From: Geotalea uraniireducens Rf4
GTDB lineage: Bacteria; Desulfobacterota; Desulfuromonadia; Geobacterales; Geobacteraceae
Assembly: GCF_000016745.1 (NCBI RefSeq)
Contig: NC_009483.1
Coordinates: forward strand, 3,780,001-3,812,000
Reading direction: 5' to 3'
Length of the DNA: 32,000 bases
The notes under the pieces were generated by a model. It had not been told where the DNA came from and made no database searches. It was given only the letters and a program-made list of their open reading frames with translations. Both the position numbers and the translations under genes were made by a program. Of this stretch, positions 10,719-30,543 are shown piece by piece (position 1 is the first letter of the stretch; every line of letters starts with the position of its first letter).

Positions 10719-10999
10719 GTGAACTGGGATCGGGGAACGGGGAACGACAAAAACTTAAATAATCCCTATAATTATTCGGAACTATAACCCAAACAAATGC
10801 TGAATGTAACGCAGAGACGCAGAGACGCAAAGAAAGGCACTTCAAAAAAATCTCTGCGCCTTTGCGTCTCTGCGTTAAGACAAGTTTTTGTCGGTCTTGC
10901 ATTGCACTCTTCATACATTCCTTTCTTTGGTTATGTTGCCGCAATTATTTCTGATTTAACTGTGCGGCGCTTGATCCCTGACCCATGATCCCTGATCCC
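10719..10999. repeat. Composite intergenic repeat element. The outer inverted arms are tandem heptamers (10719-10746 and 10972-10999). They enclose an octamer-repeat hairpin (10807-10877).
   Basis: The left arm is GTGAACT GGGATCG GGGAACG GGGAACG. The reverse complement of the right arm is GGGATCA GGGATCAT GGGTCA GGGATCA. The centre reads TAACGCAGAGACGCAGAGACGCAAAG ... CTTTGCGTCTCTGCGTTA. TTTAACTG lies at 10955-10962. Confidence 0.8.
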
Positions 11000-12282
11000 A
11001 GGAATTGCTCGATAACCGCCATGTGCCGCTCTGTCGAGCCGCTGTTCTCTGCCAGGAGCCGAGCCCCGTTGTTTCCCATTTCCTGGCGCTTTGCCTCGTC
11101 ATCGAGCAGGGAACCGAGCATTGCCGTAAGCTCCCCGCCATCGGCAACCCGGACACCTGCTCCGAACTCGATGAGCAGTGCGGCAATCTCCTTGAAGTTG
11201 TTCATGTGCGGACCGAACAGGACCGGCACGCGCAGTGAAGCGGGCTCCAGGACGTTGTGGCCGCCGTTCGGCACGAGGCTGCCGCCGACAAAGACCAGGT
11301 CGGAAACGGCATAGACATTCAATAACTCTCCGACGGTGTCGAGCAAAAGGACTTCACCGGAAGAAAACGGCTCCTGTCGCGCATCGAGGGCGGAACGCCG
11401 GGTGTAGGGAAAACCGGCTCGGCCGAGCAGCTCGGCGACCTGAGCTGCCCTCTCGGGATGACGGGGGGCCAGGACCATGATCGCGTTTCGCCCCCCGGCG
11501 AGAACAGCCGTGTACGCCTTGATTACCATCTCTTCTTCACCGTTGTGGGTGCTGCCTGCGGTAAAGAGGAGGATGTCGGCAGGAATCCGGTAACGATTTC
11601 TCAGTTCCGCCCTATCCTGCCCTGTTTGCGCCGGGACGGCAATGTCATATTTCAAGTTGCGGGTAATATGCACACTCTCGGCAGGCGCGCCGATCGCGGT
11701 TATCCGTCGGGCGTCCTCGGCACTCTGCATGCAGAGGGCAGCAAGATTGCGCAAGATCGGCTGGAAGAACCAGCGCAAGCGCAGATAGCGGTGGAAGGAT
11801 TTATCGGAAATGCGGCCGTTCACCAGCAGCATCGGAATCGCTAACCGCCTGGCAGCCCGGATAAAATTGGGCCATAGCTCTGTTTCCATGACGAGGATCA
11901 AGGACGGTCTCACCTTGCGCAACACCCTGTTGACGGCGAAGGGGTAGTCGAAGGGGAAGTAGAGGCAGAGGTCGATCCCGGCGATTTTGCCGGCAACCTG
12001 CCGGCCGGTTTCGGTGACATTGGAAATCACCAGCTTGCTGTGGGGATAGCGCTTGCGCAACGCCTTGATGAGGGGGATGGCGGCGACGGTCTCGCCGACG
12101 GATACCGCATGCACCCAGATCACATCGCTTCCCGCGAGTTTTGCCAGATCGGATGCAGCAATGAAACCGAAACGTTGGGCAAAAGCAGTCGGCCGTCCCC
12201 GGGTTATGGAACGGTAAAGGTGGTAAGGAACGACAAAGATGATGGAAATCAGTGCCAGTAGATTATAGAATAAATTTATCAT
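10945..12282 (-). CDS. waaA: 3-deoxy-D-manno-octulosonic acid (Kdo) transferase. An alternative upstream ATG lies at 12348.
   Basis: From the ATG at 12282, MINLFYNLLALISIIFVVPYHLYRSITRGRPTAFAQRFGFI aligns with the E. coli WaaA N-terminus. VHAVSVGE and FVGGSLVPNGGHNVLEP blocks are present. The last ~17 residues are encoded by the heptamer repeat arm. Confidence 0.9.
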   Translation of the reverse strand: MINLFYNLLALISIIFVVPYHLYRSITRGRPTAFAQRFGFIAASDLAKLAGSDVIWVHAVSVGETVAAIPLIKALRKRYPHSKLVISNVTETGRQVAGKIAGIDLCLYFPFDYPFAVNRVLRKVRPSLILVMETELWPNFIRAARRLAIPMLLVNGRISDKSFHRYLRLRWFFQPILRNLAALCMQSAEDARRITAIGAPAESVHITRNLKYDIAVPAQTGQDRAELRNRYRIPADILLFTAGSTHNGEEEMVIKAYTAVLAGGRNAIMVLAPRHPERAAQVAELLGRAGFPYTRRSALDARQEPFSSGEVLLLDTVGELLNVYAVSDLVFVGGSLVPNGGHNVLEPASLRVPVLFGPHMNNFKEIAALLIEFGAGVRVADGGELTAMLGSLLDDEAKRQEMGNNGARLLAENSGSTERHMAVIEQFLGSGIMGQGSSAAQLNQK

Positions 12283-12354
12283 CGATATATCTCGGGTTTC
12301 GGCCACTAGTTTTACCGCTGGCCCTTTTCCGGGACTGAGCGCTGACATTGCAAG

Positions 12355-13311
12355 TCAAGGCTGGGGGCTGTTTTTCCACCGTCTGTGTATCCAGTACCAT
12401 TCGGTCGGATGACGCACGATATATTGTTCGATGGCTGCGGTCAAGCGTGCCACGTCCTCACGCCCACCTTCGTCCCCATCCTTTTCCAGGTTGGGGAGAA
12501 TTTCAGGAAATATGGTTATGACGTGACCAGTACCCTCACGGTGGATAAATACCGGAAGGAGTGCCACGCCGGTCTTCCGGGCGATAAGCGAGGGCATCCT
12601 TATGGTCCAGACATCCCGCCCGAGAAATCCGACCCGGTATCCATCATCCGGCGAGACCGCCTGGTCGATCAGCACACCAACAATGCGGTTTTGGCGAAAT
12701 TCACTGATCATCGCCTTGAGGGCGCCACTCTTGTAGATGACCCGATTACCGAACTTTATACGGATCTTTTCCATCACATTGTGCAGATAGATGTTATTTT
12801 GCCGCCTGGCAACCACTGAGACATTACGGAAACGAGCTCCTGAGGCAAGCGCCATTAATTCCCAGTTGCCGCAATGACCACCGATAAAAGCAATACCTCT
12901 CTGCCTGGCCTTAGCTTTTTCAAAGTGCTCAATACCGCGGAATTCTACCGATTCGACTATGCTTCGACCAAAACCGTGGTAGACCTTGAATATCTCCACA
13001 AGGGACATGCCCAGGTTTTCAAAGGTTTTCCTCGCAATCTCCTCCGGAGTGTCGCTGGTCGGAATCCAGCCTTCCTGGCGCGTCATAAACGGCAGTGCAG
13101 CGGTAATGTTGGCAATGGCAATAGACCGTCTCCTCTTCAGGATACGAAAGAGGAATCGCCCAAGCCTTTTCCCCGCACCCAGGGCGATTCTTTTGGGAAT
13201 CAGCGCGATCGAGAAAGAAACGATGAGAAACAGCGCCACTTCCAGTAACCAACGCAGCTTTTTCATCATGGCAACGTCACTCTTCACTTTTACCTTATCG
13301 GGTTTGCTCAT
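12355..13311 (-). CDS. Lipid A biosynthesis (Kdo2-lipid IVA) late acyltransferase, LpxL/HtrB family
   Basis: N-terminal TM segment. The HX4E motif GGHCGNWELMA is present, at 318 aa. The start overlaps the msbA stop by 4 nt (ATGA). Confidence 0.8.
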   Translation of the reverse strand: MSKPDKVKVKSDVAMMKKLRWLLEVALFLIVSFSIALIPKRIALGAGKRLGRFLFRILKRRRSIAIANITAALPFMTRQEGWIPTSDTPEEIARKTFENLGMSLVEIFKVYHGFGRSIVESVEFRGIEHFEKAKARQRGIAFIGGHCGNWELMALASGARFRNVSVVARRQNNIYLHNVMEKIRIKFGNRVIYKSGALKAMISEFRQNRIVGVLIDQAVSPDDGYRVGFLGRDVWTIRMPSLIARKTGVALLPVFIHREGTGHVITIFPEILPNLEKDGDEGGREDVARLTAAIEQYIVRHPTEWYWIHRRWKNSPQP

Positions 13312-15026
13312 TCCTGAAACTGCATGTCGTAAAGCTTGCAGTAGAGGCCGCCATGGGCCAGCAGGCTTTCGTGGTTACCGACTTCCACGACCTCTCCCTT
13401 GTCGAGCACGACGATCCTGTCGGCATGGAGAACGGTGGAAAGGCGGTGGGCTATGACAAACGTGGTACGGTTAGCCATCAGGTTATTCAGGGCATTCTGC
13501 ACCATCTGCTCACTCTCGGTATCGAGTGCGCTCGTGGCTTCATCGAGGATGAGAATCGGCGCATCCTTCAGGATCGCCCGGGCAATGCAGATCCGCTGGC
13601 GCTGGCCGCCGGACAGCCTGACGCCACGGTCACCTATGTTGGTTTCATATCCTTCCGGCAGCTCTGCGATAAAGTCGTGGGCAAAGGCGGCCTGCGCCGC
13701 AGCCATCACCTCGGCATCGGTGGCATCGGTCTTGCCGTAGCGTATATTGTTGGCAAGTGTGTCATTGAAGAGGATCGTCTCCTGGTCAACCAGGGCAATC
13801 TGCCGGAGCAGACTCCTGAGGGTCAGGGTGCGGATGTCCCTGCCGTCGACAAGGACCGCTCCTTCTGTCGGGTCGTAAAAGCGGGAAAGGAGCGATACGA
13901 GAGTGGTTTTGCCGCCGCCGGACGGGCCGACAAAGGCTACCACTTCGCCCCTTCGGGCAGAGAGATTTATGTTCTTCAGTACGTAGTCATCGTTGTACCT
14001 GAAGGAGACCCCCCTGAATTCCACGTCGCCGCTGGCCCGCACAATCTCCTCGGCATCCGGCAGATCCACGATCTCCGGCTTCTCGTCGATGATCTCGAAG
14101 ACCCGCTCACCGGCACCGATGGAACGCTGAAAAATATTATACAGGCTGGTGATTCTCTTGACCGGATTGAAAACCAGTACCATTGCAGTGATGAATGAGA
14201 AAAACTCCGAAGCGCTCATTTTCCCCTGGATCACGCTGTTGCCGCCGACCCAGATAACGGCCGCGATACCGAAGGAGATGATGAACTCCATTACAGGCGT
14301 AGAAAGCGCCTCATACTTTATGGATCTGCGGGTGAAATCATAGTAATCCCGGTTGCGGGAGAGGAACTTTCCGATTTCCCAGTTCTCCATGCCGAACGCC
14401 TTGATCACCTTGATGCCGGAAAATGTTTCCTGGAGGATGCTGGTAATATCCCCCATCCGTCCCTGGCTCTCCTTGGAGATGTTCTTTATCCGCTTGCCGA
14501 TCTTCTGGGCAGGATAGATGGTCAGTGGGATGACCACAAAGGAGATAAGCGCCAGCTGCCAGTTGCGGTAGAAGATCACCCCAAGCAGGGACACGGCCGA
14601 AATCCCTTCGCGGAAAACACCGGTGACGATGCCGCCGACACCATCCTGCATCATGTTCACATCATTCAAGACCCGCGACATGAGCACGCCAGTCGGATGC
14701 CTGTTGAAAAAACCGAGGCCCAGATGCATGTTCTTCTGGTAGATTTCGTTTCGCACATCCTGTACCGCCAGCTGTCCCGCAGTGCGCATGAAATAATCGT
14801 TGGCAAAGCGGCAGATGCCGCGGATCACGAATAAAAGGACAATGCCGATCGGCAATACTGCAAAAATCGTCATATCCTTGCCGGCAAAAACCTTTTTCAA
14901 TACCGGTTCCACCAGAAAGGCGATAGCGCCGTCCAGCGCCCCTACCGCGATGGATGCCAGGGCAGCCACCAGGATGCGTCGCCAGTAAGGCAAACTGTAT
15001 TTGATCAGTCTCTTGAATGTGTTCAT
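13308..15026 (-). CDS. msbA: Lipid A export ABC transporter (fused permease/ATPase)
   Basis: The N-terminal half has six TM segments. The NBD carries GPSGGGKTT, LSGGQRQR and ILILDEATSALD. It sits inside the lpx cluster. Confidence 0.9.
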   Translation of the reverse strand: MNTFKRLIKYSLPYWRRILVAALASIAVGALDGAIAFLVEPVLKKVFAGKDMTIFAVLPIGIVLLFVIRGICRFANDYFMRTAGQLAVQDVRNEIYQKNMHLGLGFFNRHPTGVLMSRVLNDVNMMQDGVGGIVTGVFREGISAVSLLGVIFYRNWQLALISFVVIPLTIYPAQKIGKRIKNISKESQGRMGDITSILQETFSGIKVIKAFGMENWEIGKFLSRNRDYYDFTRRSIKYEALSTPVMEFIISFGIAAVIWVGGNSVIQGKMSASEFFSFITAMVLVFNPVKRITSLYNIFQRSIGAGERVFEIIDEKPEIVDLPDAEEIVRASGDVEFRGVSFRYNDDYVLKNINLSARRGEVVAFVGPSGGGKTTLVSLLSRFYDPTEGAVLVDGRDIRTLTLRSLLRQIALVDQETILFNDTLANNIRYGKTDATDAEVMAAAQAAFAHDFIAELPEGYETNIGDRGVRLSGGQRQRICIARAILKDAPILILDEATSALDTESEQMVQNALNNLMANRTTFVIAHRLSTVLHADRIVVLDKGEVVEVGNHESLLAHGGLYCKLYDMQFQE

Positions 15027-15039
15027 GATAATTTCTCTA

Positions 15040-16158
15040 TTAATCCATCATCTTAAGCGCCAGCTCGGCCAGCCGCCTGGAACAGCCACCACTGCCGAGT
15101 TTTTGCTCGATCGTGCCGAGCTTCCGGGTTATAGCTGCGGCATACTCGCTGTCGGTAAGAATGGCGCCAATCTCGGCCGCGATCTTCGCCGGTTCGGCGT
15201 CATGCTGGATCAGTTCCTTCACCACCCGCTCGCCGGCGACGATGTTGCAGATCCCGATGTGATCCACCTTTATCAGGCGCTTGCCCACGGCATAGGTCAA
15301 AGGGGAAACACGGTAGATAATCACCATCGGCACCCCGATCAGTGCTATCTCCATGGTAACGGTCCCGGAAACGGTGACAACAGCATCACAGACCTGCATG
15401 ACGTCGTAATTCCTGTCCTGCACCACGAACACCTGCAATCCGGATTTTTCCAGTTCCGGGGCAATGTCCGCGTGCTTCAGGCTCGAAGCGAGAGGGAGGA
15501 TGAACTGGACATCCGTAAATCGGCTCTGCAGCAGTTTTGCCGACTCCAGGATGACAGGGAAAAGGCTTTTGATCTCGCTTCGGCGACTCCCCGGAAAAAG
15601 GCCAATTGTCTTTTTGTGGGGGTCGAGGCCGAAGAACGACACGGCTTCCGCACGCCCCATGGTGGGCCGAACCATGTCCAGCAGAGGATGGCCGACAAAG
15701 GTGACGGGTACGCGCTCCTTTTCATAGTATGGAACTTCGAAAGGGAACAACACCGCCATATGGTCGACGATACGGGCGATCTTTTTTACCCTGCCGGCAC
15801 GCCAGGCCCAGACCTGCGGGCTGATATAATAGAGGACCTTGACGCCGCAAGCCTTGGCAACGGCCGCCAGCCGCAGATTGAAGTCCGGATAGTCGATGAG
15901 GATGAGAAGGCTCGGCGGTGTCGTCTTTATGACCCGCTTCAGGGAGGTGAAAGCGTTGGCAATCACCCGGAAATTGGCGACAACCTCAACGAGACCGACC
16001 ACCGCCATGTCATTGGCGTCGATGAGCGTCTCCACGCCGGCGGCGCGCATTCCGGCTCCACCCATGCCGATAAAGGCGATATCCCGGTCGAGCCTGCGGA
16101 TCTCTCGGGCGAGCATGGCGCCGTACATATCGCCGGAAGCTTCCCCGGCTACAATCAT
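15040..16158 (-). CDS. lpxB: Lipid-A-disaccharide synthase. The track ORF uses a TTG at 16182, but the ATG at 16158 is more likely.
   Basis: MIVAGEASGDMYGA..., ~372 aa, with GT19-type blocks (DYPDFNL, GTVTMEIAL). Confidence 0.9.
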   Translation of the reverse strand: MIVAGEASGDMYGAMLAREIRRLDRDIAFIGMGGAGMRAAGVETLIDANDMAVVGLVEVVANFRVIANAFTSLKRVIKTTPPSLLILIDYPDFNLRLAAVAKACGVKVLYYISPQVWAWRAGRVKKIARIVDHMAVLFPFEVPYYEKERVPVTFVGHPLLDMVRPTMGRAEAVSFFGLDPHKKTIGLFPGSRRSEIKSLFPVILESAKLLQSRFTDVQFILPLASSLKHADIAPELEKSGLQVFVVQDRNYDVMQVCDAVVTVSGTVTMEIALIGVPMVIIYRVSPLTYAVGKRLIKVDHIGICNIVAGERVVKELIQHDAEPAKIAAEIGAILTDSEYAAAITRKLGTIEQKLGSGGCSRRLAELALKMMD

Positions 16159-16214
16159 TATTTTCTTACCACCGTCAGCCAATTAATGCACCATACCCAC
16201 GGGTTATTGTATAG

Positions 16215-16256
16215 GTAAAAATCCGCGAAGGCGACGATCCCGATCGCCGCCTTCGC
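16215..16256 (-). terminator. Rho-independent-terminator-like hairpin between lpxA and lpxB
   Basis: In gene sense: GCGAAGGCGGCGAT-CGGG-ATCGTCGCCTTCGC (14-bp stem, one mismatch), followed by GGATTTTTAC. Confidence 0.55.
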
Positions 16257-16295
16257 ATTAATGAATACTGTAACCCTCTGATTATTCAGACAGGA

Positions 16296-17072
16296 TCAGC
16301 GGCAGATTCCCCTCTGCGCCGTCTCGACGAAGGTTGTAAAATGATCGACCTCCGGCGATGAGGGAACTTCGTTCTTGATCCGCTCAAGGGCATCCTTCAG
16401 TTTCAGATCGGAGAGGACAAGGATCTTATAGGCCTTCTTCAGGGAGGCTATGACCTCGTCACTGAACTTGTGCCGCTTAAGGCCGACGAGATTAAGTCCC
16501 CGCAGGCGGGCATCGCGCCGATCTCCTGTTGTGATGGTATACGGCGGTATGTCCATGCCGACGAGGGTGCCACCGCCGATCATGGCGTGGGCGCCGATCC
16601 TGGTAAACTGGTGGATCGCCGACAGGCCGCCGAGGATGGCGTAGTCTTCGACTTTCACATGTCCGGCCAGGGTTGCGGCATTGGCCATGACGACTCCGTT
16701 GCCGATGCTACAGTCATGGGCCACGTGGGAATAGGCCATGAACAAGTTGCCGCTGCCGACGGTGGTCTCGCCGTTCCCGGTCACCGTCCCCAGGTGGAGG
16801 GTAGCAAATTCACGAATGATATTCCTGTCCCCTATTTTCAGATAAGTTTCTTCCCCCTTGTACTTCAGGTCCTGGGGGACGGCGCCGACTGAAGCCAGGT
16901 GAAAGATCTGATTGTTTTCACCGATGGTTGTCCAGCCGTCTATGACCGTATGGGCACCGACCTTGGTGCCACGTCCGATCTTGACGTGCTCGCCGATGAT
17001 CGCATAAGGACCGATTTCAACGTCGCTGTCGAGTTCCGCTTTCGGGTGTACTACTGCAGTTGCATGTATCAT
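16296..17072 (-). CDS. lpxA: UDP-N-acetylglucosamine O-acyltransferase
   Basis: 258 aa. Left-handed beta-helix hexapeptide repeats followed by a helical C-terminal domain. Positioned after fabZ. Confidence 0.95.
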   Translation of the reverse strand: MIHATAVVHPKAELDSDVEIGPYAIIGEHVKIGRGTKVGAHTVIDGWTTIGENNQIFHLASVGAVPQDLKYKGEETYLKIGDRNIIREFATLHLGTVTGNGETTVGSGNLFMAYSHVAHDCSIGNGVVMANAATLAGHVKVEDYAILGGLSAIHQFTRIGAHAMIGGGTLVGMDIPPYTITTGDRRDARLRGLNLVGLKRHKFSDEVIASLKKAYKILVLSDLKLKDALERIKNEVPSSPEVDHFTTFVETAQRGICR

Positions 17073-17087
17073 TGTCTTCTCCGACCC

Positions 17088-17528
17088 TTATTTCGCTTTT
17101 TCGGCGAAGGTTGCCTTCAGCTCAGCTTCCGTGGCGAGAACGCCGTCCACATACGCCTTGCCCGCTACGCTCCAGATACCGCGGCGACTGAAGATGGTTT
17201 CCACCTCGATGCGCAGCTGATCTCCGGGGAATACCGGCTTCCTGAATTTGGCATTGTCGATGGCCATGAAATAGCTCACCTTCTTGCGGGTTTCATCGTC
17301 GGAAGCCAGGTAGGCCATGATCCCTGCCACCTGGGCCATCGCTTCGACAATGAGAACCCCCGGCATCACCGGGTGACCGGGAAAATGCCCCTGGAAAAAG
17401 GGTTCGTTGATGGTGACGTTTTTGAGGCCGACGCACCGCTTGCCCGGTTCCATTTCCACAATTCTGTCCACCATGAGAAACGGGAAACGGTGAGGCAATA
17501 TTTTCATTATTTCATTGATATCCATCAT
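17088..17528 (-). CDS. fabZ: 3-hydroxyacyl-ACP dehydratase
   Basis: 146 aa, with LPHRFPFLMVD and FFQGHFPGHPVMPGVL. Confidence 0.95.
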   Translation of the reverse strand: MMDINEIMKILPHRFPFLMVDRIVEMEPGKRCVGLKNVTINEPFFQGHFPGHPVMPGVLIVEAMAQVAGIMAYLASDDETRKKVSYFMAIDNAKFRKPVFPGDQLRIEVETIFSRRGIWSVAGKAYVDGVLATEAELKATFAEKAK

Positions 17529-17582
17529 AACAATAACTCCTTGAACATATTATAAAATTACAAGAAGGGGCATGTGCCCAAA

Positions 17583-18629
17583 TCACTTTTCGTTGGTATT
17601 AGAGGCCAACATTTTTTCAAGCTCCGCCACCCTTTTTTCCAGGGCGCCCAGGGTCTTGCGATATTCCGGCAGGCGGGGAAAGATACCGGATGCCTTGAGC
17701 CATTCGCGATGGGGAATAGCGGGGATGCCGCTGATGATCTGGTTGGCCGGGATGTTGCCGGGGACGCCGGATTTTGCCCCGACCATGACGTTATCACCGA
17801 TCTGGATGTGGCCTGCCACCCCGACCTGCCCCCCCATGGTCACATGGCTCCCCACCTTGGTGCTGCCGGAGATCCCCACCTGTGAACATATCATGCCATT
17901 TTCACCGATAACGCAGTTATGGGCGATCTGCACCAGGTTGTCGATCTTGGTGCCACGCCTGATCAGCGTGACTTCCAGTGCGGCCCGGTCGATGACCGTG
18001 TTGGAGCCGATTTCAACATCATCCTCAATCATGACGATGCCGATCTGGGGTATTTTGTACCACTCTTTGCCGTCGGGGGCATAGCCGAACCCGTCGCATC
18101 CTACGACCGTCCCGTTATGGATCGTCACCCGGTTGCCGATCCGGCACCGCTCGCGCACGCTCACATTGGCGTGGAGCGTAACGTCGTCGCCAAGTATCAC
18201 CCCGGGATAGAGCACTACGCCGGGGTAGAGGGTCACCCGGTTCCCGAGCCTGACCCCATCGGCGACAAAAGCCCCCGGGTAAACCGTCACATCGTCCCCC
18301 ATGGCCACGGCCTTGCCGACAAAAGCCCCGTCCATGACCCCATAGGCCTTGGCCGGCGCAACATAAAACAGGGTAAGAAGCTTGGCGAATGCAAGGTAGG
18401 GGTTGGCAACCTCGACGACATTCCGTCCGTGACCATCGGCGCCCGGCGGGAGAATGACCGCAGCCGCGTTGGTAGTGGCGACTTTTTGCGCGTACTTGGG
18501 ATTTGCCAGGAAGGTGATCTGCCCATCCCCCGCATCGTCCAGGGTGCCAAGACCGCGAACAAGGGCGCTCTCGTCACCGATTACCCGCCCACCCAGGTAC
18601 TCTGCCAGTTCTTTTAAGGATTTTTCCAT
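17583..18629 (-). CDS. lpxD: UDP-3-O-acylglucosamine N-acyltransferase. The true start is the ATG at 18629, not the track ORF start at 18704.
   Basis: [20 protein letters not shown]... followed by hexapeptide repeats, 348 aa. The 25 residues added by the longer ORF are a translation of the repeat arm. Confidence 0.93.
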
Positions 18630-18644
18630 AATGTCACCTGAAAG

Positions 18645-18734
18645 CAGTAAATAGTGAGTAGTAAGTCGTAAGTAGTAAATAAAGAAATTGGGCGATATTT
18701 CCACTTCTCACTTCTTACTTCTCACTTCTAACTG
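18645..18734. repeat. Inverted pair of tandem-heptamer arms (18653-18678 and 18702-18729) with a CAGTAAAT / TCTAACTG terminal pair, in the skp-lpxD spacer
   Basis: In gene sense: CAGTTAGAA GTGAGAA GTAAGAA GTGAGAA GTG ... TTACTAC TTACGAC TTACTAC TCACT ATTTACTG. By hand alignment, 19 of 25 arm positions are complementary. Confidence 0.85.
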
Positions 18735-18739
18735 TTTTT

Positions 18740-19264
18740 CTATTTTTTCTTGGTTGCGTTGAACAGTTTCAGTATTTCTTCAGTCAGATCCGCTTTATCG
18801 TCAAGATAAATCATGGTTTCGTTTCTGACAAATACAGCTGTGTAGGCATTTTTGCGGCCGTATTCCTGGGTCACCTTGACGATCTCGTCGACTATCCGGT
18901 TCGTCAGCTCGTCGTTTTTTGCCTGAAGATCATCCTGGGCATCCTTGAGAAAGCGCTGATATTCCTTAAGCCGCTGCTGGTAATCCTTCTCTTTTGCATT
19001 GCGGGCCGTCTCAGAAAGAAGAACGCTCTGTTTTTCAAGCTCTGCCTTCAGTTTTTTCAATTCATCTTCTTTGGCATTCTTCTCGGTTTCATACTTGTTG
19101 GCCTTCTGGGCAAGCTGCTCTTTGGCATCTTTCCCGGCATTGGAAAGAAGCAGCACCTTCTGGATATCCACAGATCCTATTTTCACTGCATCTGCAGCAA
19201 AAGCAGCAGATGTAAGAGCGATGGAGGAAAGAGATATGGCCAATGCAACGATGATCTTTTTCAT
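18740..19264 (-). CDS. skp: Periplasmic chaperone Skp/OmpH
   Basis: Signal peptide MKKIIVALAISLSSIALTSAAFA, then a K/E/Q-rich coiled-coil body, 174 aa. It sits in the canonical position between bamA and lpxD. Confidence 0.9.
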   Translation of the reverse strand: MKKIIVALAISLSSIALTSAAFAADAVKIGSVDIQKVLLLSNAGKDAKEQLAQKANKYETEKNAKEDELKKLKAELEKQSVLLSETARNAKEKDYQQRLKEYQRFLKDAQDDLQAKNDELTNRIVDEIVKVTQEYGRKNAYTAVFVRNETMIYLDDKADLTEEILKLFNATKKK

Positions 19265-19284
19265 GTGTTTCTCCTTTATATGAG

Positions 19285-21594: not shown

Positions 21595-21608
21595 AGGTCC
21601 CCCGAAAA

Positions 21609-21730
21609 GCGGTCGGCAGTCGGCGGTCGATGGTTTACACCGCCCATCCCTTTACCGTCCAACGACCGATTTTAACTGATTTTACCGCCGACCGCCGACT
21701 GCCGACCGCCGACCGATTCTAACTGATTTT
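21609..21730. repeat. Perfect 21-bp inverted repeat of heptamer arrays (21609-21629 and 21689-21709; the right array spans 21685-21715), plus a 20-nt direct repeat (21664-21683 and 21711-21730), in the lolD-bamA spacer
   Basis: GCGGTCGGCAGTCGGCGGTCG is exactly the reverse complement of CGACCGCCGACTGCCGACCGC. The arms are built from TCGGCGG/TCGGCAG heptamers. GACCGATT[T/C]TAACTGATTTT occurs twice. Confidence 0.9.
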
Positions 21731-22390
21731 CCCATCTACCAGGCGTATGGTCTTGCCCATTCTGTCAGCAAGCTTCTCGTTATGGGTTACTATTATGAGT
21801 GTCAGCCCTTTTTTCCGGTGGATCTCGTTCAAAAGGTCATGAACCTCGTCGCTGGTTTTCATATCCAGGTTACCGGTCGGCTCGTCGGCCAACAGCAGTT
21901 TCGGCGAACGCACCAGGGAACGGGCAATGGCGACCCGCTGCTGCTCTCCGCCGGAAAGCTCGCCGGGCTTGTGAGTCAGGCGATGTGACAAACCCACATC
22001 CCGCAACAGTTCTTCCGCAATCGCTTCAGCTTCGCCCCGCTTCATCCCGCCGATCAAAAGGGGCATCATGGCATTTTCCAATGCGGAAAATTCGGGGAGA
22101 AGATGATGAAACTGGAAGACGAAGCCGATGGAACGGTTTCTGAATGCCGCCAGCGCCATCCCGCCCAGCCTGAAGATTTCCTCTCCGTTGAACAGCACCG
22201 TACCTGACGTGGGAGTGTCAATGGTTCCAAGCACGTGGAGCAGGGTGCTTTTGCCGGCGCCGGAAGCCCCAACAAGAGCTATGGTCTCGCCGGCAGTGAC
22301 GTTAAGGCTGATGCCACGCAACACCTCCACCTTTGCCGCACCGGTTCCGTATGACTTGTAGAGATCGCGGACCTCCAGCAGGTTACTCAT
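21719..22390 (-). CDS. lolD: Lipoprotein-releasing system ATP-binding protein
   Basis: [17 protein letters not shown] and [12 protein letters not shown]. The ATG at 22390 overlaps the upstream stop by 8 nt. The track start at 22453 adds 21 non-homologous residues. Confidence 0.88.
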
Positions 22391-23657
22391 AGCGAAGCGC
22401 CTCCGCGGGGGCCATCCGTGATGCCTGCCATGACGGGTAAAGGGTCGCGACAAAGGAGATCAGCACTGCGGTGACGGAAATGAGGATCACATCCGACGGA
22501 ATCACCAGCGAAGGGAAATGGTCCAGATAGTAAATGTCCTTGCTGAACAATTGGAAACCGGTCAGCCGCTGAACGGCATTAACAATCGGCTCCAGGTTCA
22601 GCGCCACGAGCAGGCCGCTCAACACGCCGATCACCGTGCCGAGCACGCCGATAATAATACCCTCGAAAACAAAGATACGCATGACGCTTCTGCTGGTGGC
22701 ACCCATGGATTTAAGGATGGCGATATCTCGTGTTTTTTCCATCACCACCATGAACAGGGTGGAAGCGATGCCGAAAGCCGCTACCAGAACGATAAGGGTC
22801 AAGATGATAAACATCACCATTTTTTCGGTCTTCAGCGCAAAGAGGATGTTCTTGTTCATCTGCATCCAGTCCCTGGCAAAATATGGATAGCCGATTTCGC
22901 TGTTGATCCTGCGAACAAGCATACCGGTTTTATAAACATCCTCGACCTTAAGCTGGATTCCGGTAACGGCCTTCCCCATCCCGAGGAACGCCTGGGCCTC
23001 ATCAAGCCCCACGTAGGCAAGCGTTGAATCGTATTCGTACATACCGGTATTGAATATGCCCACAACCCGGAACCGTTTCATCTTCGGCATCATCCCCAGC
23101 GGCGTGATGTTTCCCATGGGGGACACCACGTTAACCGTATCGCCGAGGAACAGGTTGAGGTTTTTCGCCAGTTCCTTGCCTATCACCACGCCGGGGGACG
23201 GAGCTTCGCTGCTGTTGAGCGGCAACGGCGCCGGGCGATCCAGGTCTGCCAGTTTTCCCTCGACAACGGCCTTGTGCAGATTGGTCACCTGGGCATCGGA
23301 CTTTGTATCTATGCCGCGGAGGACTACGCCCGACACATTCTTGCCGGTGGTGAGCATCACCTGGCTATAAATGAACGGCGTTGCCGCAACAACACCCTTC
23401 AGCCCCATCAGCCGTTCCGTAAGACGCGGGTAATCTTCGATGCCGTCACTGCTCTTCAGCACCACGATATGGGCGTTGGTGCCGAGGATCTTATCCTTCA
23501 GGTCCTCTTCAAAGCCGGTCATAACCGCCAGGACGATGATCAGGGCCATCACCCCCAGCGCCACACCGGCAACGGAAATAAGGGTTATCAGCGAAATGAA
23601 GGTAGATTTGCGCTTCGCCTTGAGATAGCGGAGACCGATGAAGAGTTCAAATGGCAT
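22383..23657 (-). CDS. Lipoprotein-releasing system permease, LolC/LolE family
   Basis: 424 aa. MacB-like topology: TM1, a large periplasmic domain, then an FtsX-type 3-TM C-terminus. It sits immediately upstream of lolD. Confidence 0.88.
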
Positions 23658-25142
23658 TTATTTCACTTCTTTCCGCAATTGCGGGAAGAGAATGACGTCA
23701 CGGATTGAAGGCGCATCGGTAAGGAGCATCACAAGGCGGTCTATGCCGATCCCCTCGCCCGCAGTGGGCGGCAGGCCGTATTCAAGAGCCCGGATGTAGT
23801 CCTCATCCATGTAGTGGGCCTCTTCGTCGCCTTTCGCCTTGGCCGCGACCTGGGCAAGGAAACGTTCCTTCTGATCCACCGGATCGTTGAGCTCGGAAAA
23901 TGCGTTGGCCATTTCCCGTCCGGCGCAGAAAAACTCGAAACGGTCGACAATCTCCGGGTCATGGTCGTTTTTGCGGGACAGTGGGGACACCTCGGTTGGA
24001 TAAGCGGTGATGAACGTCGGCTGGATCAGTTTGGTTTCTGCGACCTCCTCGAATATTTCGGTAACCAGCTTGCCGTAGCCGATATCCTCTGGGAGGTCGA
24101 GCCCGATCCGTTTTGCATAGGCAAAGGCCATGTCGCGGTCTTCGAGTGATTTGGCATCGATATCCCCGTACTCCAGGATCGCTTCCTTGACGGTAAATCG
24201 TTTCCAGGGGCGCTGAAAGCTGATAGGCATTCCCTGGTAACTAAAATCGAGTGTGCCGAGCACGTCATGCGCCACATGGCAGAGGAGCTCTTCCGTAAAG
24301 TTCATCAGGTCTTCGAAGGTAGCGTAAGCCTGGTAAAACTCCATCATGGTGAACTCGGGGTTGTGGCGGACGGAAATCCCCTCGTTGCGGAAGTTGCGGT
24401 TGATTTCAAAAACCCGGTCGAGCCCTCCCACCACCAGCCTCTTCAGGTAGAGTTCCGGCGCGATGCGAAGAAAGAGTTCCATATCGAGCGCATTGTGGTG
24501 GGTAACGAAAGGGCGTGCCGTGGCTCCCCCGGGAATCTGCTGCATCATCGGCGTTTCGACTTCGAGGAAGTCGTTTTTTACCATGAAGGCACGGATCAGA
24601 TTAACAATCCTGGAACGCTTGGCAAAAACCTCGCGCACTTCGGGATTGACGATGAGATCCACATAACGCTGGCGGTAACGGGTCTCCACATCGGTAAGAC
24701 CATGAAACTTCTCGGGCAAAGGAAGAAGGGATTTTGTCAACAACCTTATCTCCAGTACATGGAGAGAAAGCTCGCCGGTTTTGGTGCGAAACGGGTAGCC
24801 GACAGCGCCGACAATATCGCCTATATCAAAGGACTCAAACTGGCCGAAAACCTCATCGCCGATTGCGTCTTTCTTCACATAGAGCTGGAAGCGCCCCTTG
24901 CGATCCTGCAACTGGACAAAAGCCGCCTTGCCGAAAGAGCGGCGGGCAATGATCCTGCCGGCTACTACAAAATTGGGCGGATCTTCATCAATGGTCTCCG
25001 AACCGCCATAGGCGGCAAACAGATCAGCCGAAGTATGCTGCGGCTTAAAGTCATTGGGATAAGGGTTTACCCCCGCCTCCCACATGGTGTCAACCTTACG
25101 TCTTCTCTGCAACAACAATTCACTCAACTCTTCTATCGCCAC
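23658..25142 (-). CDS. lysS: Lysine--tRNA ligase, class II (GTG start)
   Basis: 494 aa. N-terminal OB-fold anticodon-binding domain and class II core with FRNEGIS and [19 protein letters not shown]. The stop codon directly abuts the lolC/E ATG. Confidence 0.95.
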
Positions 25143-25190
25143 ATTAACACCTTTCTCAAAACGCCCGTCCAGTCGGTTTCACAAACCGAC

Positions 25191-25220
25191 AAATTAGCGT
25201 ATTTCATCGCGTTAAGTCAA
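25191..25220 (-). promoter_or_regulatory. Candidate sigma70-type promoter for lysS
   Basis: In gene sense: TTGACT, an 18-nt spacer, then TAATTT (or GCTAAT with a 16-nt spacer). Motif match by eye only. Confidence 0.3.
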
Positions 25221-25275
25221 GGAAAAACGGGGTAACCGAACCGGCATAAATATGCGATGTACAGGCAAAGAGATG

Positions 25276-25306
25276 TTGACACATAACTGGATGCACGTGT
25301 AAAAAT
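25276..25306 (+). promoter_or_regulatory. Candidate sigma70-type promoter for ettA
   Basis: TTGACA at 25276-25281. TGtAAAAAT (extended -10-like) ends at 25306. It lies about 38 nt upstream of the ATG. Confidence 0.4.
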
Positions 25307-25343
25307 AAAGCCATAATTTATCAGGAGGTCACAGAACAAGAAT

Positions 25344-27029
<1,686 letters not shown>

Positions 27030-27050
27030 AATCTGGTTCTTCCAGAAAAG

Positions 27051-27232
27051 CCGAGAAGCTGGCGGAGGCTCGGGAGTGGAGGGAAGGGACCGAGCGGCGA
27101 GCGGACACCCGACCGCCGCTTCCATAGTCAACGACGAATAGCGCCAAGACCATCACGAATAGTAGGAAACCGATGAAGGTCCGCAGCTCGGGCTCAACCG
27201 AAATGGACGAGTCTCCGCCAGCTCCTTACCGG
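27051..27232 (+). ncRNA. Candidate structured RNA or MITE-like element in the ettA 3' region. Identity unknown and strand uncertain.
   Basis: 27055-27072 pairs with 27208-27225 (18 bp: one G.U and one A.C). Inner helices are 27090-27095/27186-27191 and 27101-27106/27179-27184, flanking a 17/16-nt internal loop. A terminator follows at 27249-27287. Confidence 0.3.
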
Positions 27233-27248
27233 TAATGCTCAACGAATG

Positions 27249-27287
27249 AAAAAAGGCCATCTCACTTAGAGGTGGCCTTTTGTTTGT
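27249..27287. terminator. Bidirectional rho-independent terminator shared by the convergent ettA side and hisG
   Basis: An A6 run, GGCCATCTC-ACTTA-GAGGTGGCC (9-bp stem with one G.U), then TTTTGTTTGT. The A-run gives the U-tract for the minus strand, 22 nt after the hisG stop. Confidence 0.8.
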
Positions 27288-27309
27288 GATGCATCGTGAA
27301 TAGCACAAG

Positions 27310-28185
27310 CTAAATGATCTTGTTCAGCGGATACTCCACAATCCCCTCCGCCCCCATCTTCAAGAGCTTCGGTACAATGGAACGAACCTCCTTCTCGGGG
27401 AGGATGCTCTCGATGGAGACCCAGTCGGAGTTATACAGGTGGGAAACCGTCGGGTTGTTCAGGCTGGGGAGGATTTCGGTGATGGCGTCTACCGCACTGT
27501 TCGGCGCATTCATCTTGAGCCCCACCATCCCCTCGGCGGCCAGAGCCGACTTGAGCAAGGTGGCTATCTGCTGGATTTTGGCTTGTTTCCAGGGGTCTGC
27601 CCAGGCCGCCTTGTTGACGATCAGCACCGGCACCGACTCCATCAGATCGCAGACGATGCGCAGATTGTTGGCCCGGATGGTGGAACCGGTTTCCGTGACC
27701 TCGACAATGGCATCGCAGAGACCGTCCACTACCTTAGCTTCGGTCGCCCCCCAGGAGAACTCCACCGTCACCGGGATGTTCCGCTCGGCGAAGTAGCGCT
27801 TGGTGAAACCTACCAGTTCGGTGGAGATAGTGGCGCCGTGGAGGTCTTCCGGCTTTTGCACCGGTGAGTCCTGACTCACTACCAGCACCCAACGGACCGG
27901 TCGGCGTGACACCTTGGAGTAGACCATCTCGCAGACTTCAATCACATCGGAATCGTTTTCCCGCACCCAGTCGCGGCCGGCAATCCCCACGTCGATGGTG
28001 CCGCGCTCCACGTATTTGCCCATCTCCTGGGGACGGATCAGCTTGCAGTTCATCTCCTCGTCGTCGATGGTGGGAAAGTAGCTGCGGGATGATATCCCCA
28101 CCTGCCAGCCCGCCTGCTTGAACAGGTCAACGGTTGCATCTTCCAGACTACCTTTAGGAATACCGAATTTCAGGATATTGGACAT
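27310..28185 (-). CDS. hisG: ATP phosphoribosyltransferase, long form
   Basis: 291 aa. [15 protein letters not shown] is at the N-terminus, the catalytic domains follow, and a C-terminal regulatory domain is present by length. Confidence 0.9.
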
Positions 28186-28236
28186 AACGTTCCTTTCATG
28201 CTGCGTGCTGCGTTCAGGGTGCTTCTACGTCGCACG

Positions 28237-28614
28237 TCATTTTTTGTAGACTTCGTTCGGATCAAAGAGCGGGTTCGAATGCTCGACCCATTCACCGTTT
28301 TCCCATTTCACGTAAAAACAGCTCCTGTTGCCGGTGTGGCAGGCGGCAGGGCCGTTCTGCTTCACCTTGATAACCACCGTGTCCGCATCGCAGTCGGTGA
28401 GGACCTCCTTCACCTCCTGGGTGTTCCCAGACTCCTCGCCCTTCATCCAGTACTTGTTGCGGGTACGGCTGAAGAACCAGGTTTTCCCGGTTTCCAGGGT
28501 CAGGTTCAGGGTCTTCTCATCCATGAAGGCCACCATCAGTACCTCGCCGGATTCATGGTCCTGAATGACCGCTGGAATCAATCCTCCCATCTTTTCAAAA
28601 TCAAGCTTGATCAT
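28237..28614 (-). CDS. hisI: Phosphoribosyl-AMP cyclohydrolase (monofunctional)
   Basis: 125 aa, with [41 protein letters not shown] and [10 protein letters not shown]. Confidence 0.93.
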
Positions 28615-28657
28615 GTCTTTTTCAATCCTTCCTTGGCGTATTGCTTAAAAATATCTT

Positions 28658-28687
28658 CTAATACACCGGCGGCATGGCCGATGTCAA
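28658..28687 (-). promoter_or_regulatory. Candidate sigma70-type promoter for hisI-hisG, overlapping the bioC stop codon
   Basis: In gene sense: TTGACA (28687-28682), an 18-nt spacer, then TATTAG (28663-28658). It lies about 44 nt upstream of the hisI ATG. Confidence 0.35.
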
Positions 28688-29526
28688 CAGATTAACGCGG
28701 AAACCTCTTTGTGCTGTTTTCTCCCAGCCCCATACACCACCTCGTAAGTGGCGGGTATACCATCTGCATTTGCGTATTTACTTCGATAAACATCCATCAT
28801 TTCCAGCATGACTCTCCGCCCGGCAAGGCCACGCGGGGCAACAGGCGCGGCATTTCCCGCACCGATCCGCTTCAGGGAGCGCAGTAACGCAGACACATCG
28901 GCATGATATTCCAGTTCAAGCTCGGCATCTGCCCGACAATGGCTGAACCCGGCGCATTCCAGCGCGGCTGCGACATCAGTCGCTGCAAAGAAGCGGTGGG
29001 TCCGGTCCTCGCCCTGCTGTGACGCATTGTTTAACGCCAGGCGGTAGGAGTCCTTTAATTCAAAGAGGGTGCGTTGGCCGAAGAGTGCAAAGCAAAAAAG
29101 CCCTCCCGGCGCCAACACCCGCCACGCCTCCTTGAAAGCCAGTTCCAGGCTGGTCAGCCATTGGTAGGTCGATGTGGAAGTAACCAAGTCGAATACACCG
29201 TCAGCAAAGGGAAGTGACTCGGCATCGGCTGTGACGAGTTGCACACGTCCGCAGTCCTTGAAATTGGCCCGCGCCGTCAGACACATACCGAAAGCAAGGT
29301 CTGCTCCGACGGCCCGCAACTTCGGATATATCCTGTGTAAACCAGCCAGCAACCGGCCCGTGCCGGCACCGACATCGAGCACAAGTTGCGGTTCGCCCGC
29401 TTCCCGCTGCACCTCTTTGAGCACGTGTCCAACCACCCGTTTCTGTACCAGGGCATGGCTGTCGTAATCTTCCGCCTGCCGATGAAAGGCAGCCTTTACC
29501 CTTTTTCTGTCGATAGTTTCAGTCAT
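28684..29526 (-). CDS. bioC: Malonyl-ACP O-methyltransferase
   Basis: 280 aa. AFHRQAEDYDSHALVQKRV, the SAM-binding VLDVGAGTG motif, and a position next to bioH and bioF. Confidence 0.85.
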   Translation of the reverse strand: MTETIDRKRVKAAFHRQAEDYDSHALVQKRVVGHVLKEVQREAGEPQLVLDVGAGTGRLLAGLHRIYPKLRAVGADLAFGMCLTARANFKDCGRVQLVTADAESLPFADGVFDLVTSTSTYQWLTSLELAFKEAWRVLAPGGLFCFALFGQRTLFELKDSYRLALNNASQQGEDRTHRFFAATDVAAALECAGFSHCRADAELELEYHADVSALLRSLKRIGAGNAAPVAPRGLAGRRVMLEMMDVYRSKYANADGIPATYEVVYGAGRKQHKEVSALIC

Positions 29527-29584
29527 ATATTTCTTATATTGTATGCATGGAATGCATTTTGGTGAACGGTCTTATTTGAAAATA

Positions 29585-29710
29585 CTCTGTGATTTTCTCT
29601 GTGTCTCCGTGGCTCTGTGGCCTAACTGCCGTTTTAAGGTTTAACGACAAAAAACCTATGATTTTAATCCGCTTTTTCTGCGTTAATCTGCGTCCGTTTG
29701 CTCTTTGCTT
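29585..29710. repeat. Low-complexity short-tandem-repeat element in the bioH-bioC spacer
   Basis: CTCTGTGA tttt CTCTGTGT CTCCGTGG CTCTGTGG (29585-29620) is followed by CCTAACTG (29621-29628). Then come TCTGCGTTAA TCTGCGTCCG (29677-29696) and TTTGCTC TTTGCTT (29697-29710). Confidence 0.8.
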
Positions 29711-29727
29711 TTCTCCATTTCTGTGCA

Positions 29728-30543
29728 TCATCGACAAATGTTTTCCTGGAACTCCCGCAGAATGCGGTTAAACTCAGCAGGCTTGGTCATGAACGGCGCA
29801 TGGCCGCTCCCTTCGATGATCCGCAATGTGGACAGAGGAAGCCGTTCCGCCATGAAGCGTGAGGCGGCCGGCAGACAAATGTTGTCTCTGGCGCCATGGA
29901 TAAGGAGCACCGGCCGGTCAACCAGGCCAAGTTGAGGTCGCAAGTCTGCATCGGCCAGGGTTTTAAGCGATTGTCTCGCCGGCTCCGGCCCAGGCGAGCG
30001 CCCCCCCATTAAGATCTCGTGGACGATCCGCTGGTACTGCTCCCGGTCCAGCTCTTCCTCGGCGAACATTCCACGGAAAAAATCACCCATGGTTTTCTGG
30101 TAGTCACGCTTGAGGCGAAGCCCCATTCCCTTCACCTCCACCGGCGGCAGCCCGAAGGGGTAATCCTCGGCAGCACTGAATTTTGGTGTTCCTGACACGA
30201 GCACCAGCCCGGCAAGTCGGGGACGGAGAGCGGGGAACGCCTGCAATACCACCTGCACCCCCATGGACCAGCCGACCAGAACGGCATCAGTCAAGTCAAG
30301 AGAGGTGAACAGCGCAACAACGTCATCGGCAAAATCATCGATAGCATATCCGTCCATCGGCGCAGTCGACTGTCCATGGCCGCGCAGGTCCATGGCAATA
30401 AACCGGCGGGAAGCTGCCAGTTCCTGCTGGAAACGCCACACCCGACCCGACATGGCCCAGCCGTGGATAAAGACCAGCGGACGGCCTTCACCGACATCTT
30501 CATAGTGGATGGTTACACCATCTCTTGATGCAAAATTCGGCAT
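29728..30543 (-). CDS. bioH: Pimeloyl-ACP methyl ester carboxylesterase (alpha/beta hydrolase)
   Basis: 271 aa, with LVFIHGWAMSG and the nucleophile elbow GWSMG. It lies between bioF and bioC. Confidence 0.8.
   Translation of the reverse strand: MPNFASRDGVTIHYEDVGEGRPLVFIHGWAMSGRVWRFQQELAASRRFIAMDLRGHGQSTAPMDGYAIDDFADDVVALFTSLDLTDAVLVGWSMGVQVVLQAFPALRPRLAGLVLVSGTPKFSAAEDYPFGLPPVEVKGMGLRLKRDYQKTMGDFFRGMFAEEELDREQYQRIVHEILMGGRSPGPEPARQSLKTLADADLRPQLGLVDRPVLLIHGARDNICLPAASRFMAERLPLSTLRIIEGSGHAPFMTKPAEFNRILREFQENICR

Follow-up and report, generated by a model that had tools for sequence, protein, structure and literature searches.

Several spacers between co-directional genes of Geotalea uraniireducens Rf4 carry short tandem arrays of a 7- or 8-nt unit that face each other in inverted orientation. 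They lie in a 32,000-nt stretch of contig NC_009483.1 (positions 3,780,001 to 3,812,000; hereafter the window), all of whose genes are on the minus strand, and separate waaA from lpxK, skp from lpxD and lolD from bamA in an essential lipid A/outer-membrane operon; a further, solitary array stands between bioH and bioC. These elements are most likely heptamer (in some cases octamer) arrays of the type known as short tandemly repeated repetitive (STRR) elements or long simple sequence repeats (SSRs), arranged as inverted pairs. The inverted-array design is a lineage-wide feature, not one peculiar to the window, because arrays are enriched and paired across 80 Geobacteraceae loci and the window. 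As to their origin, on balance the arrays are probably slippage-made SSRs whose arms are matched by a DNA-level process and which last in operon junctions since, once paired, they fold out of the way in the transcript, an account held here with moderate confidence.

Enrichment, placement and composition of the arrays

Relatives were gathered by a BamA scan keeping one genome per species, which returned 80 syntenic Geobacteraceae loci, the source genome not being among them; with the window they form the 1.49 Mb set to which the array statistics refer. In its non-coding DNA, period-7 arrays number 63 against 3.3 in dinucleotide shuffles (about 20-fold) and period-14 arrays 17 against 0.3, the two periods together giving 80 against about 3.6. 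Period 8 is enriched about 6-fold (22 against 3.7); a modest excess is seen at period 12 (5 against 1.35), whereas periods 9-11 lie at or close to the chance level. Chance is excluded as an explanation of the arrays. Non-coding DNA accounts for 8.8% of bases, and 75 of the 115 period-7 arrays lie in it or border it; periods 7, 14 and 8 are concentrated there, while arrays of periods 6, 9 and 12 are nearly all coding.

Pairing is frequent. For 55 of 86 non-coding arrays an inverted partner within 300 nt outscored all 40 shuffles, the other 31 being unpaired, and the paired arrays reduce to 44 distinct pairs with arm-to-arm distances of 0-259 nt. Their placement follows simple rules. Arrays occur in 54 of 373 co-directional spacers of at least 40 nt, as opposed to 2 of 122 divergent, convergent or opposite-strand ones (Fisher p = 2e-5; 0/43 convergent, 2/67 divergent), these context counts being approximate, as the genes of the relatives were called with a simple open reading frame (ORF) and codon-usage caller that errs in a few cases. 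From the upstream stop codon to the 5' arm the median distance is 5 nt, and the 3' arm ends a median of 15 nt ahead of the next start, leaving just room for a ribosome-binding site. There is also a marked polarity: G outnumbers C in the 5' arm of 42 of 44 pairs, and arrays read on their G-rich strand are nearer to the ORF on the 5' side in 49 of 60 cases (p = 8e-7). This is not a sense-versus-antisense effect, since an inverted repeat has equal polarity on both strands.

The units come from a restricted set. The 32-kb window alone holds at least five unrelated ones, each heptamer being confined to one spacer and the octamer type alone recurring (10807-10877 and 29597-29621); the earlier statement that units differ completely between loci is thus accurate for the window, but it fails across Geobacteraceae, where the same units reappear at unrelated junctions. 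With rotation and strand allowed, identical units are found at different sites at a rate of 11.5% within genomes and 2.5% between genomes, against 0.07% for random heptamers of the same composition; identity at different junctions is therefore 4.6 times commoner within than between genomes and 35 times commoner than for random heptamers. Read on the G-rich strand, a rotation-optimised profile yields a loose S-R-R-R-R-N-T unit, with 4.66 bits of information where internally shuffled units reach 3.87 at most. The window GGGATCA array is matched by an array at a different junction in L013, the AAGTGAG/AAGTAAG array is matched in L029 and the octamer hairpin in L007.

Such recurrence is what small non-autonomous mobile or dispersed elements would produce if they inserted at gene junctions and were then remodelled by local slippage, in the manner of MITEs (miniature transposable elements with inverted repeats), repetitive extragenic palindromic (REP) sequences or REP doublets forming hairpins (REPINs). 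The within-genome excess of identical units agrees with this, as do the sequence modules common to two window spacers and L003, the nested layout of the waaA/lpxK spacer and the presence of different unit families at one junction in different genomes; in G. metallireducens, moreover, comparable classes reach 16-49 copies each, and class 1 sites have insertion sequence (IS) elements at a constant distance (Aklujkar et al. 2009, PMC2700814). The elements nevertheless have no conserved termini, internal sequence or fixed length, their arm distance ranging over 0-259 nt; the stop codon often falls within the first unit, and the closest relative retains remnants of both arms in place. Neither do they qualify as MITEs: a conserved core is absent, and what is duplicated at the flanks is 17-21 nt of gene end, where MITEs have target-site duplications that are short and of fixed length. 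Mobility is accordingly given a small chance.

Composition bears equally on the idea that the arrays are G-quadruplex-forming elements, as Rehm et al. 2015 (PMC4692102) proposed for the GGGNATC repeats of Xanthomonas and Nostoc. The 5' arm of the waaA/lpxK pair, with four G3 tracts and 3-5-nt loops, would suit this proposal, arrays of GGGGACT, GGGGATT or GGGACTC occur in several relatives, and the commonest copy number is four. However, GGG or CCC runs are lacking in 100 of the 146 period-7 arrays studied and in four of the five window unit types, the 10972-10999 arm alone repeating a G3-tract unit four times. Arrays with and without such runs have median copy numbers of 3.7 and 3.6 and share the four-unit mode, so the architecture is independent of quadruplex capacity, and quadruplex formation is scarcely probable as its general explanation.

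Origin and persistence of the paired arms

From these regularities we infer an origin by slippage and template switching and a tolerance through folding. Replication slippage would gain, lose and homogenise units inside each arm, and the second arm would be created and kept matched by local duplication and inverted duplication, or by template switching between arms. Inside operons, arrays build up in the untranslated stretch that separates a stop codon from the following ribosome-binding site, where their inverted layout would fold the insert into a compact transcript stem-loop, G-rich and C-rich tracts masking each other and the stop codon staying close to the next start site. Pairing would then be maintained by purifying selection against unpaired tracts, the hairpin neutralising the insert instead of acting as a purpose-built signal. 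Effects on expression, such as stabilising of an mRNA segment, modulation of coupling or mild attenuation, would probably be secondary and locus-specific.

Several features of the arrays fit this account. Their specificity for periods 7, 14 and 8 matches the general heptamer excess in prokaryotic long SSRs: according to later summaries of Mrazek, Guo and Shah (2007), heptamers are the commonest long-SSR unit in most prokaryotic genomes, and polymerase slippage on a segment of about 7 nt is invoked. Mismatches between arms fall in one heptamer phase in 61 of 107 cases, against 40 expected and a maximum of 48 in 2000 trials, and the RNAalifold consensus fold of five orthologous hairpins consists of three 6-bp helices parted by single unpaired bases; both are expected from independent homogenisation of each arm. 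A wobble test for selection on sense-strand RNA gave 32 G·U-type and 40 A·C-type mismatches, hence no excess of G·U, and the waaA/lpxK spacer folds almost equally well on either strand (-108.6 and -105.1 kcal/mol). The periodic mismatches, the lack of wobble bias, the strand symmetry, the unpaired arrays and the fast turnover described below all speak for this reading, as do the duplicated gene ends at lolD and bioH/bioC and the intrusion of an array into waaA.

Turnover is evident at orthologous junctions. Arrays are present in 9 of 82 genomes at skp/lpxD (median spacer 11 nt), in 4 of 82 at lolD/bamA (27 nt), in 10 of 42 at waaA/lpxK (where the genes overlap and a median is not meaningful) and in 15 of 74 at g23658/lolE (7 nt), the last figure being 15 of the 29 genomes with a spacer of at least 40 nt. 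The notion that the spacers share one design is borne out in the window, and orthologous spacers keep that design while the unit changes, so that one junction carries different unit families in different genomes. Within the clade of the window, a skp/lpxD hairpin with GTGARRN-type units is found in the window itself, L083, L003 and L002; in L001, the closest relative (BamA 90% identical), this spacer is only 27 nt long and holds remnants of both arms, a state read as an apparent loss. The lolD/bamA hairpin, perfect over 21/21 in the window, is degraded in L001 as well.

Local duplication has enlarged spacers as well. The last 21 nt of lolD with its stop codon stand twice in the window, at 21730-21710 and 21683-21663, and this sequence is single-copy in L001. 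The bioH and bioC genes overlap by 17 nt in L001 (1990-2110) and L002 (1300-1420), the two closest relatives having both genes; in the window (29527-29735) about 200 nt separate them, and each edge of this spacer keeps a diverged copy of the 17-nt overlap.

The same comparisons bear on a different explanation, in which the elements are purpose-built intercistronic RNA stem-loops, positively selected for fixing how strongly operon genes are expressed relative to each other. They would do so by shielding the upstream mRNA against 3'-exonucleases, by providing RNase III/E sites, by partial termination or by translational coupling between a stop codon and a ribosome-binding site kept close to each other, as proposed for the STRR between hupS and hupL. 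Changes on both sides that preserve pairing, such as GTGAG/CTCAC versus GTGAA/TTCAC and GTTCGA/TCGAAC versus GTTCAA/TTGAAC, affect 3 of 16 pairs in one orthologue set and 3 of 18 in the other, in agreement with the compensatory changes that the original prediction had looked for in orthologous spacers; the RNAalifold covariation term is nevertheless about zero in both sets, which comprise only 4 and 5 sequences. Predicted stability is high, with z-scores of -3.7 to -8.8 across the tested window elements, the arrays fit exactly between stop codon and Shine-Dalgarno sequence and are enriched tenfold in co-directional spacers, and at lpxA/lpxB heptamer hairpins in four relatives take the place of an ordinary GC hairpin in the window. 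At the same sites, however, most genomes have hairpin-free junctions of 7-11 nt, and two hairpins are lost or degraded in the closest relative. Antisense strands fold equally well, with no preference of G·U over A·C, and 31 of 86 arrays have no partner at all. Only 10 of 43 pairs have a U-tract (at least 5 T in the 8 nt after the stem), balanced by 13 of 44 with an A-rich leader, so that no bias towards U-tracts is seen. What had been described as covariation-like behaviour is thus real as far as the pair-keeping changes go, but with strands folding equally, no G·U excess and mismatches recurring with the period, there is no indication of selection for an RNA fold of the sense strand over a generating process at the DNA level. 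Purpose-built signals therefore appear unlikely, while retaining an appreciable chance.

An account by slippage and tolerance has difficulties of its own. Tolerance leaves unexplained why no array occurs in any convergent spacer, as against 16% of arrays between convergent ORFs in Xanthomonas (Rehm et al. 2015, PMC4692102), even if the context counts are approximate. It likewise leaves unexplained the near-universal polarity, G-rich at the 5' and C-rich at the 3' side, and a unit set shared 35 times more often than random heptamers would be. The GTGARRN-type hairpins at skp/lpxD persist down to 74% BamA identity with pair-keeping changes on both sides, which fits selection for structure. Finally, no slippage or template switching was seen directly, two other assemblies of the organism being identical to the window.

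It is tempting to hypothesize that paired arrays come from a hitherto undescribed, strand-asymmetric process, common to Geobacteraceae, Xanthomonas and Nostocales, in which one arm serves as template for the other. An example would be snap-back synthesis from G-rich nascent strands with subsequent slippage by seven nucleotides at a time. Although decidedly improbable at present, such a process would, if real, jointly explain the fixed polarity, the unit of six paired bases and one unpaired, and the joint change of arms, and the hairpins would then represent a class of genome feature that renews itself, distinct both from passive junk and from classical regulatory signals.

Array-bearing spacers of the window

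Tandem Repeats Finder (TRF) and inverted-repeat searches recovered, where the original prediction had placed them, the tandem arms in inverted orientation at three spacers and the single octamer array at bioH/bioC. TRF reports period-7 arrays of 3.7-5.3 copies at 10721-10746, 10972-10999, 18642-18678, 18702-18733 and 21684-21715, and period-8 arrays at 10809-10833, 10851-10875 and 29597-29621; the gaps between paired arms measure 17, 25, 49-54 and about 225-242 nt. NCBIfam profiles agree with the earlier gene names (bioF, bioH, bioC, hisG, lolD, bamA, lpxD, waaA, lpxK); the skp ORF has no NCBIfam match and is supported by Pfam OmpH. No Rfam family matched at gathering score anywhere in the window. 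Arms are given below on the minus strand, in the sense of the genes.

The waaA/lpxK spacer is the most elaborate, with three nested inverted repeats, and its whole 301 nt are predicted to fold as a single nested structure. The outer repeat pairs a 5' arm of four GGGATCA units with four G3 tracts (10972-10999) with a 3' arm reading CGTTCCC CGTTCCC CGATCCC (10721-10747; the GGGAACG/GGGATCA type), which stops 12 nt short of the lpxK ATG (10709). These arms are complementary at 12 of 13 positions at the base. Over the longer stretch the match is about 16/25 in an ungapped count by eye, short of the 19/25 claimed earlier; the other complementarity figures, 21/21 at lolD/bamA and 24/32 at skp/lpxD, stand. 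Two inner repeats had escaped the earlier description. The middle one joins GACCGACAAAAACTT at 10882-10896 to AAGTTTTTGTCGTTC at 10742-10756 (93% over 15 nt) and is paired in the folds of both strands. The innermost is an octamer hairpin with a 5' arm of ACGCAGAG-type units (10851-10877) and a 3' arm of CTCTGCGT-type units (10807-10833), 89% complementary over 27 nt; with -44.2 kcal/mol and z -8.8 it is, by z-score, the most stable element.

The 5' outer arm sits within the 3' tail of the waaA ORF (10945-12348). The WaaA profile of NCBIfam stops at residue 450 of 467, and residues 451-467, outside the profile, are encoded by the repeat; the array seems to have displaced the native waaA stop codon (10945-10999). 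Arrays can thus lengthen ORFs, as with this 17-residue tail, which annotators should know. At the same junction many relatives have unpaired (GGAGTGA)n-type arrays that span the waaA stop and lpxK start codons (L002 20439-20465, L006 20875-20909, L007 20577-20606, L009 12530-12559, L023 21753-21778, L025 20967-20992 and L066 11786-11847), each unit including a Shine-Dalgarno-like GGAG, a GTG and a TGA.

In the skp/lpxD spacer the 5' arm, CAGTTAG AAGTGAG AAGTAAG AAGTGAG AAGTG (18702-18734), begins 5 nt past the skp stop codon, and the 3' arm, of CTTAC/CTCAC units and then TTTACTG (18642-18678), is followed by the lpxD Shine-Dalgarno sequence AGGTGA. The arms are complementary at 24 of 32 positions (75%) and the hairpin has -31.3 kcal/mol and z -3.7. 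In the lolD/bamA spacer 4.6 copies of GGTCGGC/GGTCGGCA form the 5' arm (21684-21718), which abuts the lolD stop codon (TAG 21721-21719), and the 3' arm (21609-21634) is followed by CTTTTCGGGGG, the bamA Shine-Dalgarno region. Complementarity between 21609-21634 and 21684-21709 amounts to 92% across 26 nt, including a perfect 21/21 core, and the predicted fold has -66.7 kcal/mol and z -5.8. The direct duplication of the lolD end consists of AAAATCAGTTAGAATCGGTCG at 21710-21730, with the end of the gene and its stop codon, and AAAATCAGTTAAAATCGGTCG at 21663-21683.

The bioH/bioC array is made of three octamers, CCACAGAG CCACGGAG ACACAGAG, at 29597-29621, and no inverted partner was found for it. 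The sequence GTTTTTGTCGTT, present at 10742-10753 and in inverted form at 10882-10896, occurs again in this spacer at about 29648-29659. A module of about 50 nt, GGACGCAGATTAACGCAGAAAAAGCGGATTAAAATCAT, at about 29660-29710 in the sense orientation, is common to an apparently non-orthologous spacer of L003 (2955-3000). There is a promoter-like site at 29566-29538 on the minus strand, and bioC may have gained its own promoter. A BirA operator was sought by eye in this spacer and rejected: only a single half-site-like GTTAAACC is present, with no partner at the right spacing.

Some conventional functions were set aside for the arrays as a class. A terminator scan lists none of them as intrinsic terminators, and the window arms are at least 17 nt apart as against a loop of 3-8 nt followed by a U-tract. 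Mimicry of the Shine-Dalgarno or anti-Shine-Dalgarno sequence finds no footing, with 22 Shine-Dalgarno-complementary 5-mers against 18.7 in composition-matched shuffles. Nor do the arms act by rule as three-frame stop arrays: 11 of 44 left arms close all frames and 23 lack any stop, a by-product of the period.

Each array had been thought to sit beside the same short motif, YTAACTG, more often than chance would allow. Five such sites do exist, read as CAGTTAA or CAGTTAG on the minus strand. CAGTTAA (TTTAACTG in the original prediction) stands at 10956-10962 in the waaA tail, 10 nt 3' of the outer 5' arm, and again at 21672-21678 within the second copy of the 21-nt duplication, which is its source. 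CAGTTAG is the degenerate first unit of the skp/lpxD 5' arm (18728-18734), its CAGU pairing with ACUG at the stem base; at 21719-21725 it includes the lolD stop codon and is present in L001 too; and at 29622-29628 it lies 2 nt 5' of the octamer array. The rest of the claim is no more than weakly confirmed. YTAACTG occurs six times in the whole window against four expected, and two of the five sites come from one 21-nt local duplication. In a post hoc test allowing any 7-mer with one two-fold degenerate position, presence in all four spacers was reached in 9 of 300 shuffles (p about 0.03). Within 15 nt of an array, the motif turns up just twice among the relatives, at the L001 orthologue and at one array of L023. 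The association is weak and is not a feature of the array class. A longer common module around CAGTTAG was also rejected, with one partial match in L003 and none beside arrays elsewhere.

Three further sites in the window deserve mention. The lpxA/lpxB spacer has at 16224-16257 on the minus strand an ordinary GC-rich hairpin followed by T5 (-26.3 kcal/mol), terminator-like in the scan, where L003, L013, L018 and L023 have GTGAARN heptamer hairpins, an indication that stem-loops of both types are possible there. A palindromic, terminator-like site at 27251-27281 (AAAAGGCC...GGCCTTTT), located between hisG and the gene that follows, looks like a conventional two-way terminator at an operon boundary. 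Positions 1-2000 have a G+C of 0.44-0.47, compared with 0.52-0.62 elsewhere in the window, and may be a laterally acquired or variable envelope-biosynthesis segment.

The arrays are not an assembly artefact, because across their spacers the window is matched at 100% identity by two independent public assemblies. In the search for closer relatives, an exact-protein look-up returned two contigs, both 100% identical to the window, and a metagenome scan 11 loci, the best 85% identical in Skp. One independent assembly of the same organism, L081 (Logan SRR29904084), ends inside the octamer hairpin at a point equivalent to window position 10853; array spacers evidently break short-read assemblies, a further caution for annotators.

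Relation to known repeat systems

The architecture, placement rules and polarity of these arrays are already published. The surmise that the class might be catalogued for Geobacter proves correct: Aklujkar et al. 2009 (PMC2700814) described in G. metallireducens paired sites on opposite strands, at variable distance, each with 3-5 tandem repeats of 7-9 nt, the units being GTTGCTYN (class 1), TCTCCGTS[Y] (class 2) and MTYCTGA (class 3), together with Gmet_H4, 49 elements of four GGGACCG repeats. The likeness is close, extending beyond the family itself to the opposite-strand pairs (about 70-115 bp apart in class 3), the intergenic position that sometimes reaches into genes, and the purine-rich array coming first, as in the window. 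The G. metallireducens classes differ in being multicopy families defined by BLAST in one genome, and the paired window units GGGATCA/GGGAACG, AAGTGAG and GGTCGGC match none of the three consensuses; only the unpaired array at 29597-29621 carries, as TCTCCGTG on the plus strand, the class 2 unit TCTCCGTS.

Those classes were labelled predicted global regulator sites, with binding of integration host factor (IHF) or HU as a guess (PMC2700814), and by extension the present arrays could be DNA binding sites for nucleoid-associated or global regulators or for cooperative proteins that read heptads. At least five unrelated units in one 32-kb window speak against this, as do the lack of any single consensus beyond the loose SRRRRNT and the depletion of arrays from promoter-bearing divergent spacers (2 of 67). 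Tandem heptads are, on the other side, a known binding format of some repressors. The IHF/HU label is not favoured by the present data, and a binding-site function of any kind is very unlikely.

REP, REPIN and bacterial interspersed mosaic elements (BIMEs) resemble the arrays in being extragenic, often between co-transcribed genes, and in forming hairpins in the transcript. REP units, however, are imperfect palindromes of about 20-40 nt with a genome-wide consensus, whereas the window arms have neither an internal palindrome nor a common consensus.

The flanking motif, for its part, recalls the TAACTGA direct repeats reported from marine Beggiatoaceae, cyanobacteria and Bacteroidetes (MacGregor 2015, PMC4679880), as YTAACTG includes TAACTG, two of the five window sites are TAACTGA, and those repeats are intergenic heptamers near gene starts. 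They differ in standing in tandem, in 2-43 copies a short way upstream of start codons and on the sense strand, whereas the window motif is single-copy and antisense to genes at all five sites. No tandem TAACTGA was found in the window or in 1.59 Mb of related loci; with the antisense orientation of the motif, this makes the likeness superficial.

Cyanobacterial STRR sequences offer a further parallel. They are 7-bp tandem repeats, one set of which forms a hairpin between hupS and hupL, where transcript stabilisation or translational coupling has been proposed. The elements described here have the same traits, namely at least three head-to-tail 7-nt units, an excess in non-coding DNA, and inverted, hairpin-capable arrays between co-transcribed genes, though in another phylum. 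STRR units are few and highly multicopy per genome. The STRR1 unit is CCCCAGT, the complement of the GGGGACT arrays in L023 and L068. Arrays of GGGGACT/GGGGATT at L023 12849-12875, L068 14469-14488 and L072 21718-21759 have the Nostoc GGGGA(C/T)T (STRR1-type) unit, and this coincidence of Geobacteraceae and Nostoc could reflect convergence or a common generating bias. The long SSRs of Mrazek, Guo and Shah (2007) show the same period preference as the present arrays; later summaries of that work do not address inverted pairing or placement between stop codon and ribosome-binding site.

Similar in their rules are the GGGAATC repeats of Xanthomonas and the GGGGA(C/T)T repeats of Nostoc, whose function Rehm et al. 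2015 (PMC4692102) left open. These have a four-unit mode, lie mostly between same-direction ORFs and rarely between divergent ones, near the ORF on the 5' side, and in Xanthomonas include 70-75 convergent-orientation pairs per genome able to form stem-loops, with wide variation between close relatives. The non-coding excess, the same-direction ORFs and the G-rich strand next to the 5'-side ORF are all common to the present arrays. The difference is that GGGNATC repeats are one unit family per genome, interpreted through G-quadruplexes, while here there are several units, most of them not quadruplex-capable.

What the Geobacteraceae add is a comparative case in which the same essential lipid A/outer-membrane operon in about 80 members of the family carries, lacks or swaps hairpins at the same junctions. 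This comparison, with mostly non-quadruplex units, argues against both the quadruplex and the global-regulator readings, and the question narrows to what generates inverted 7-nt arrays of fixed polarity and whether operon transcripts need them folded. Set beside the systems above, the case contributes two aspects: several unit families coexist in one genome, most of them not quadruplex-capable and yet with the same four-unit mode, and across Geobacteraceae a conserved essential operon has the hairpins time and again at corresponding junctions.

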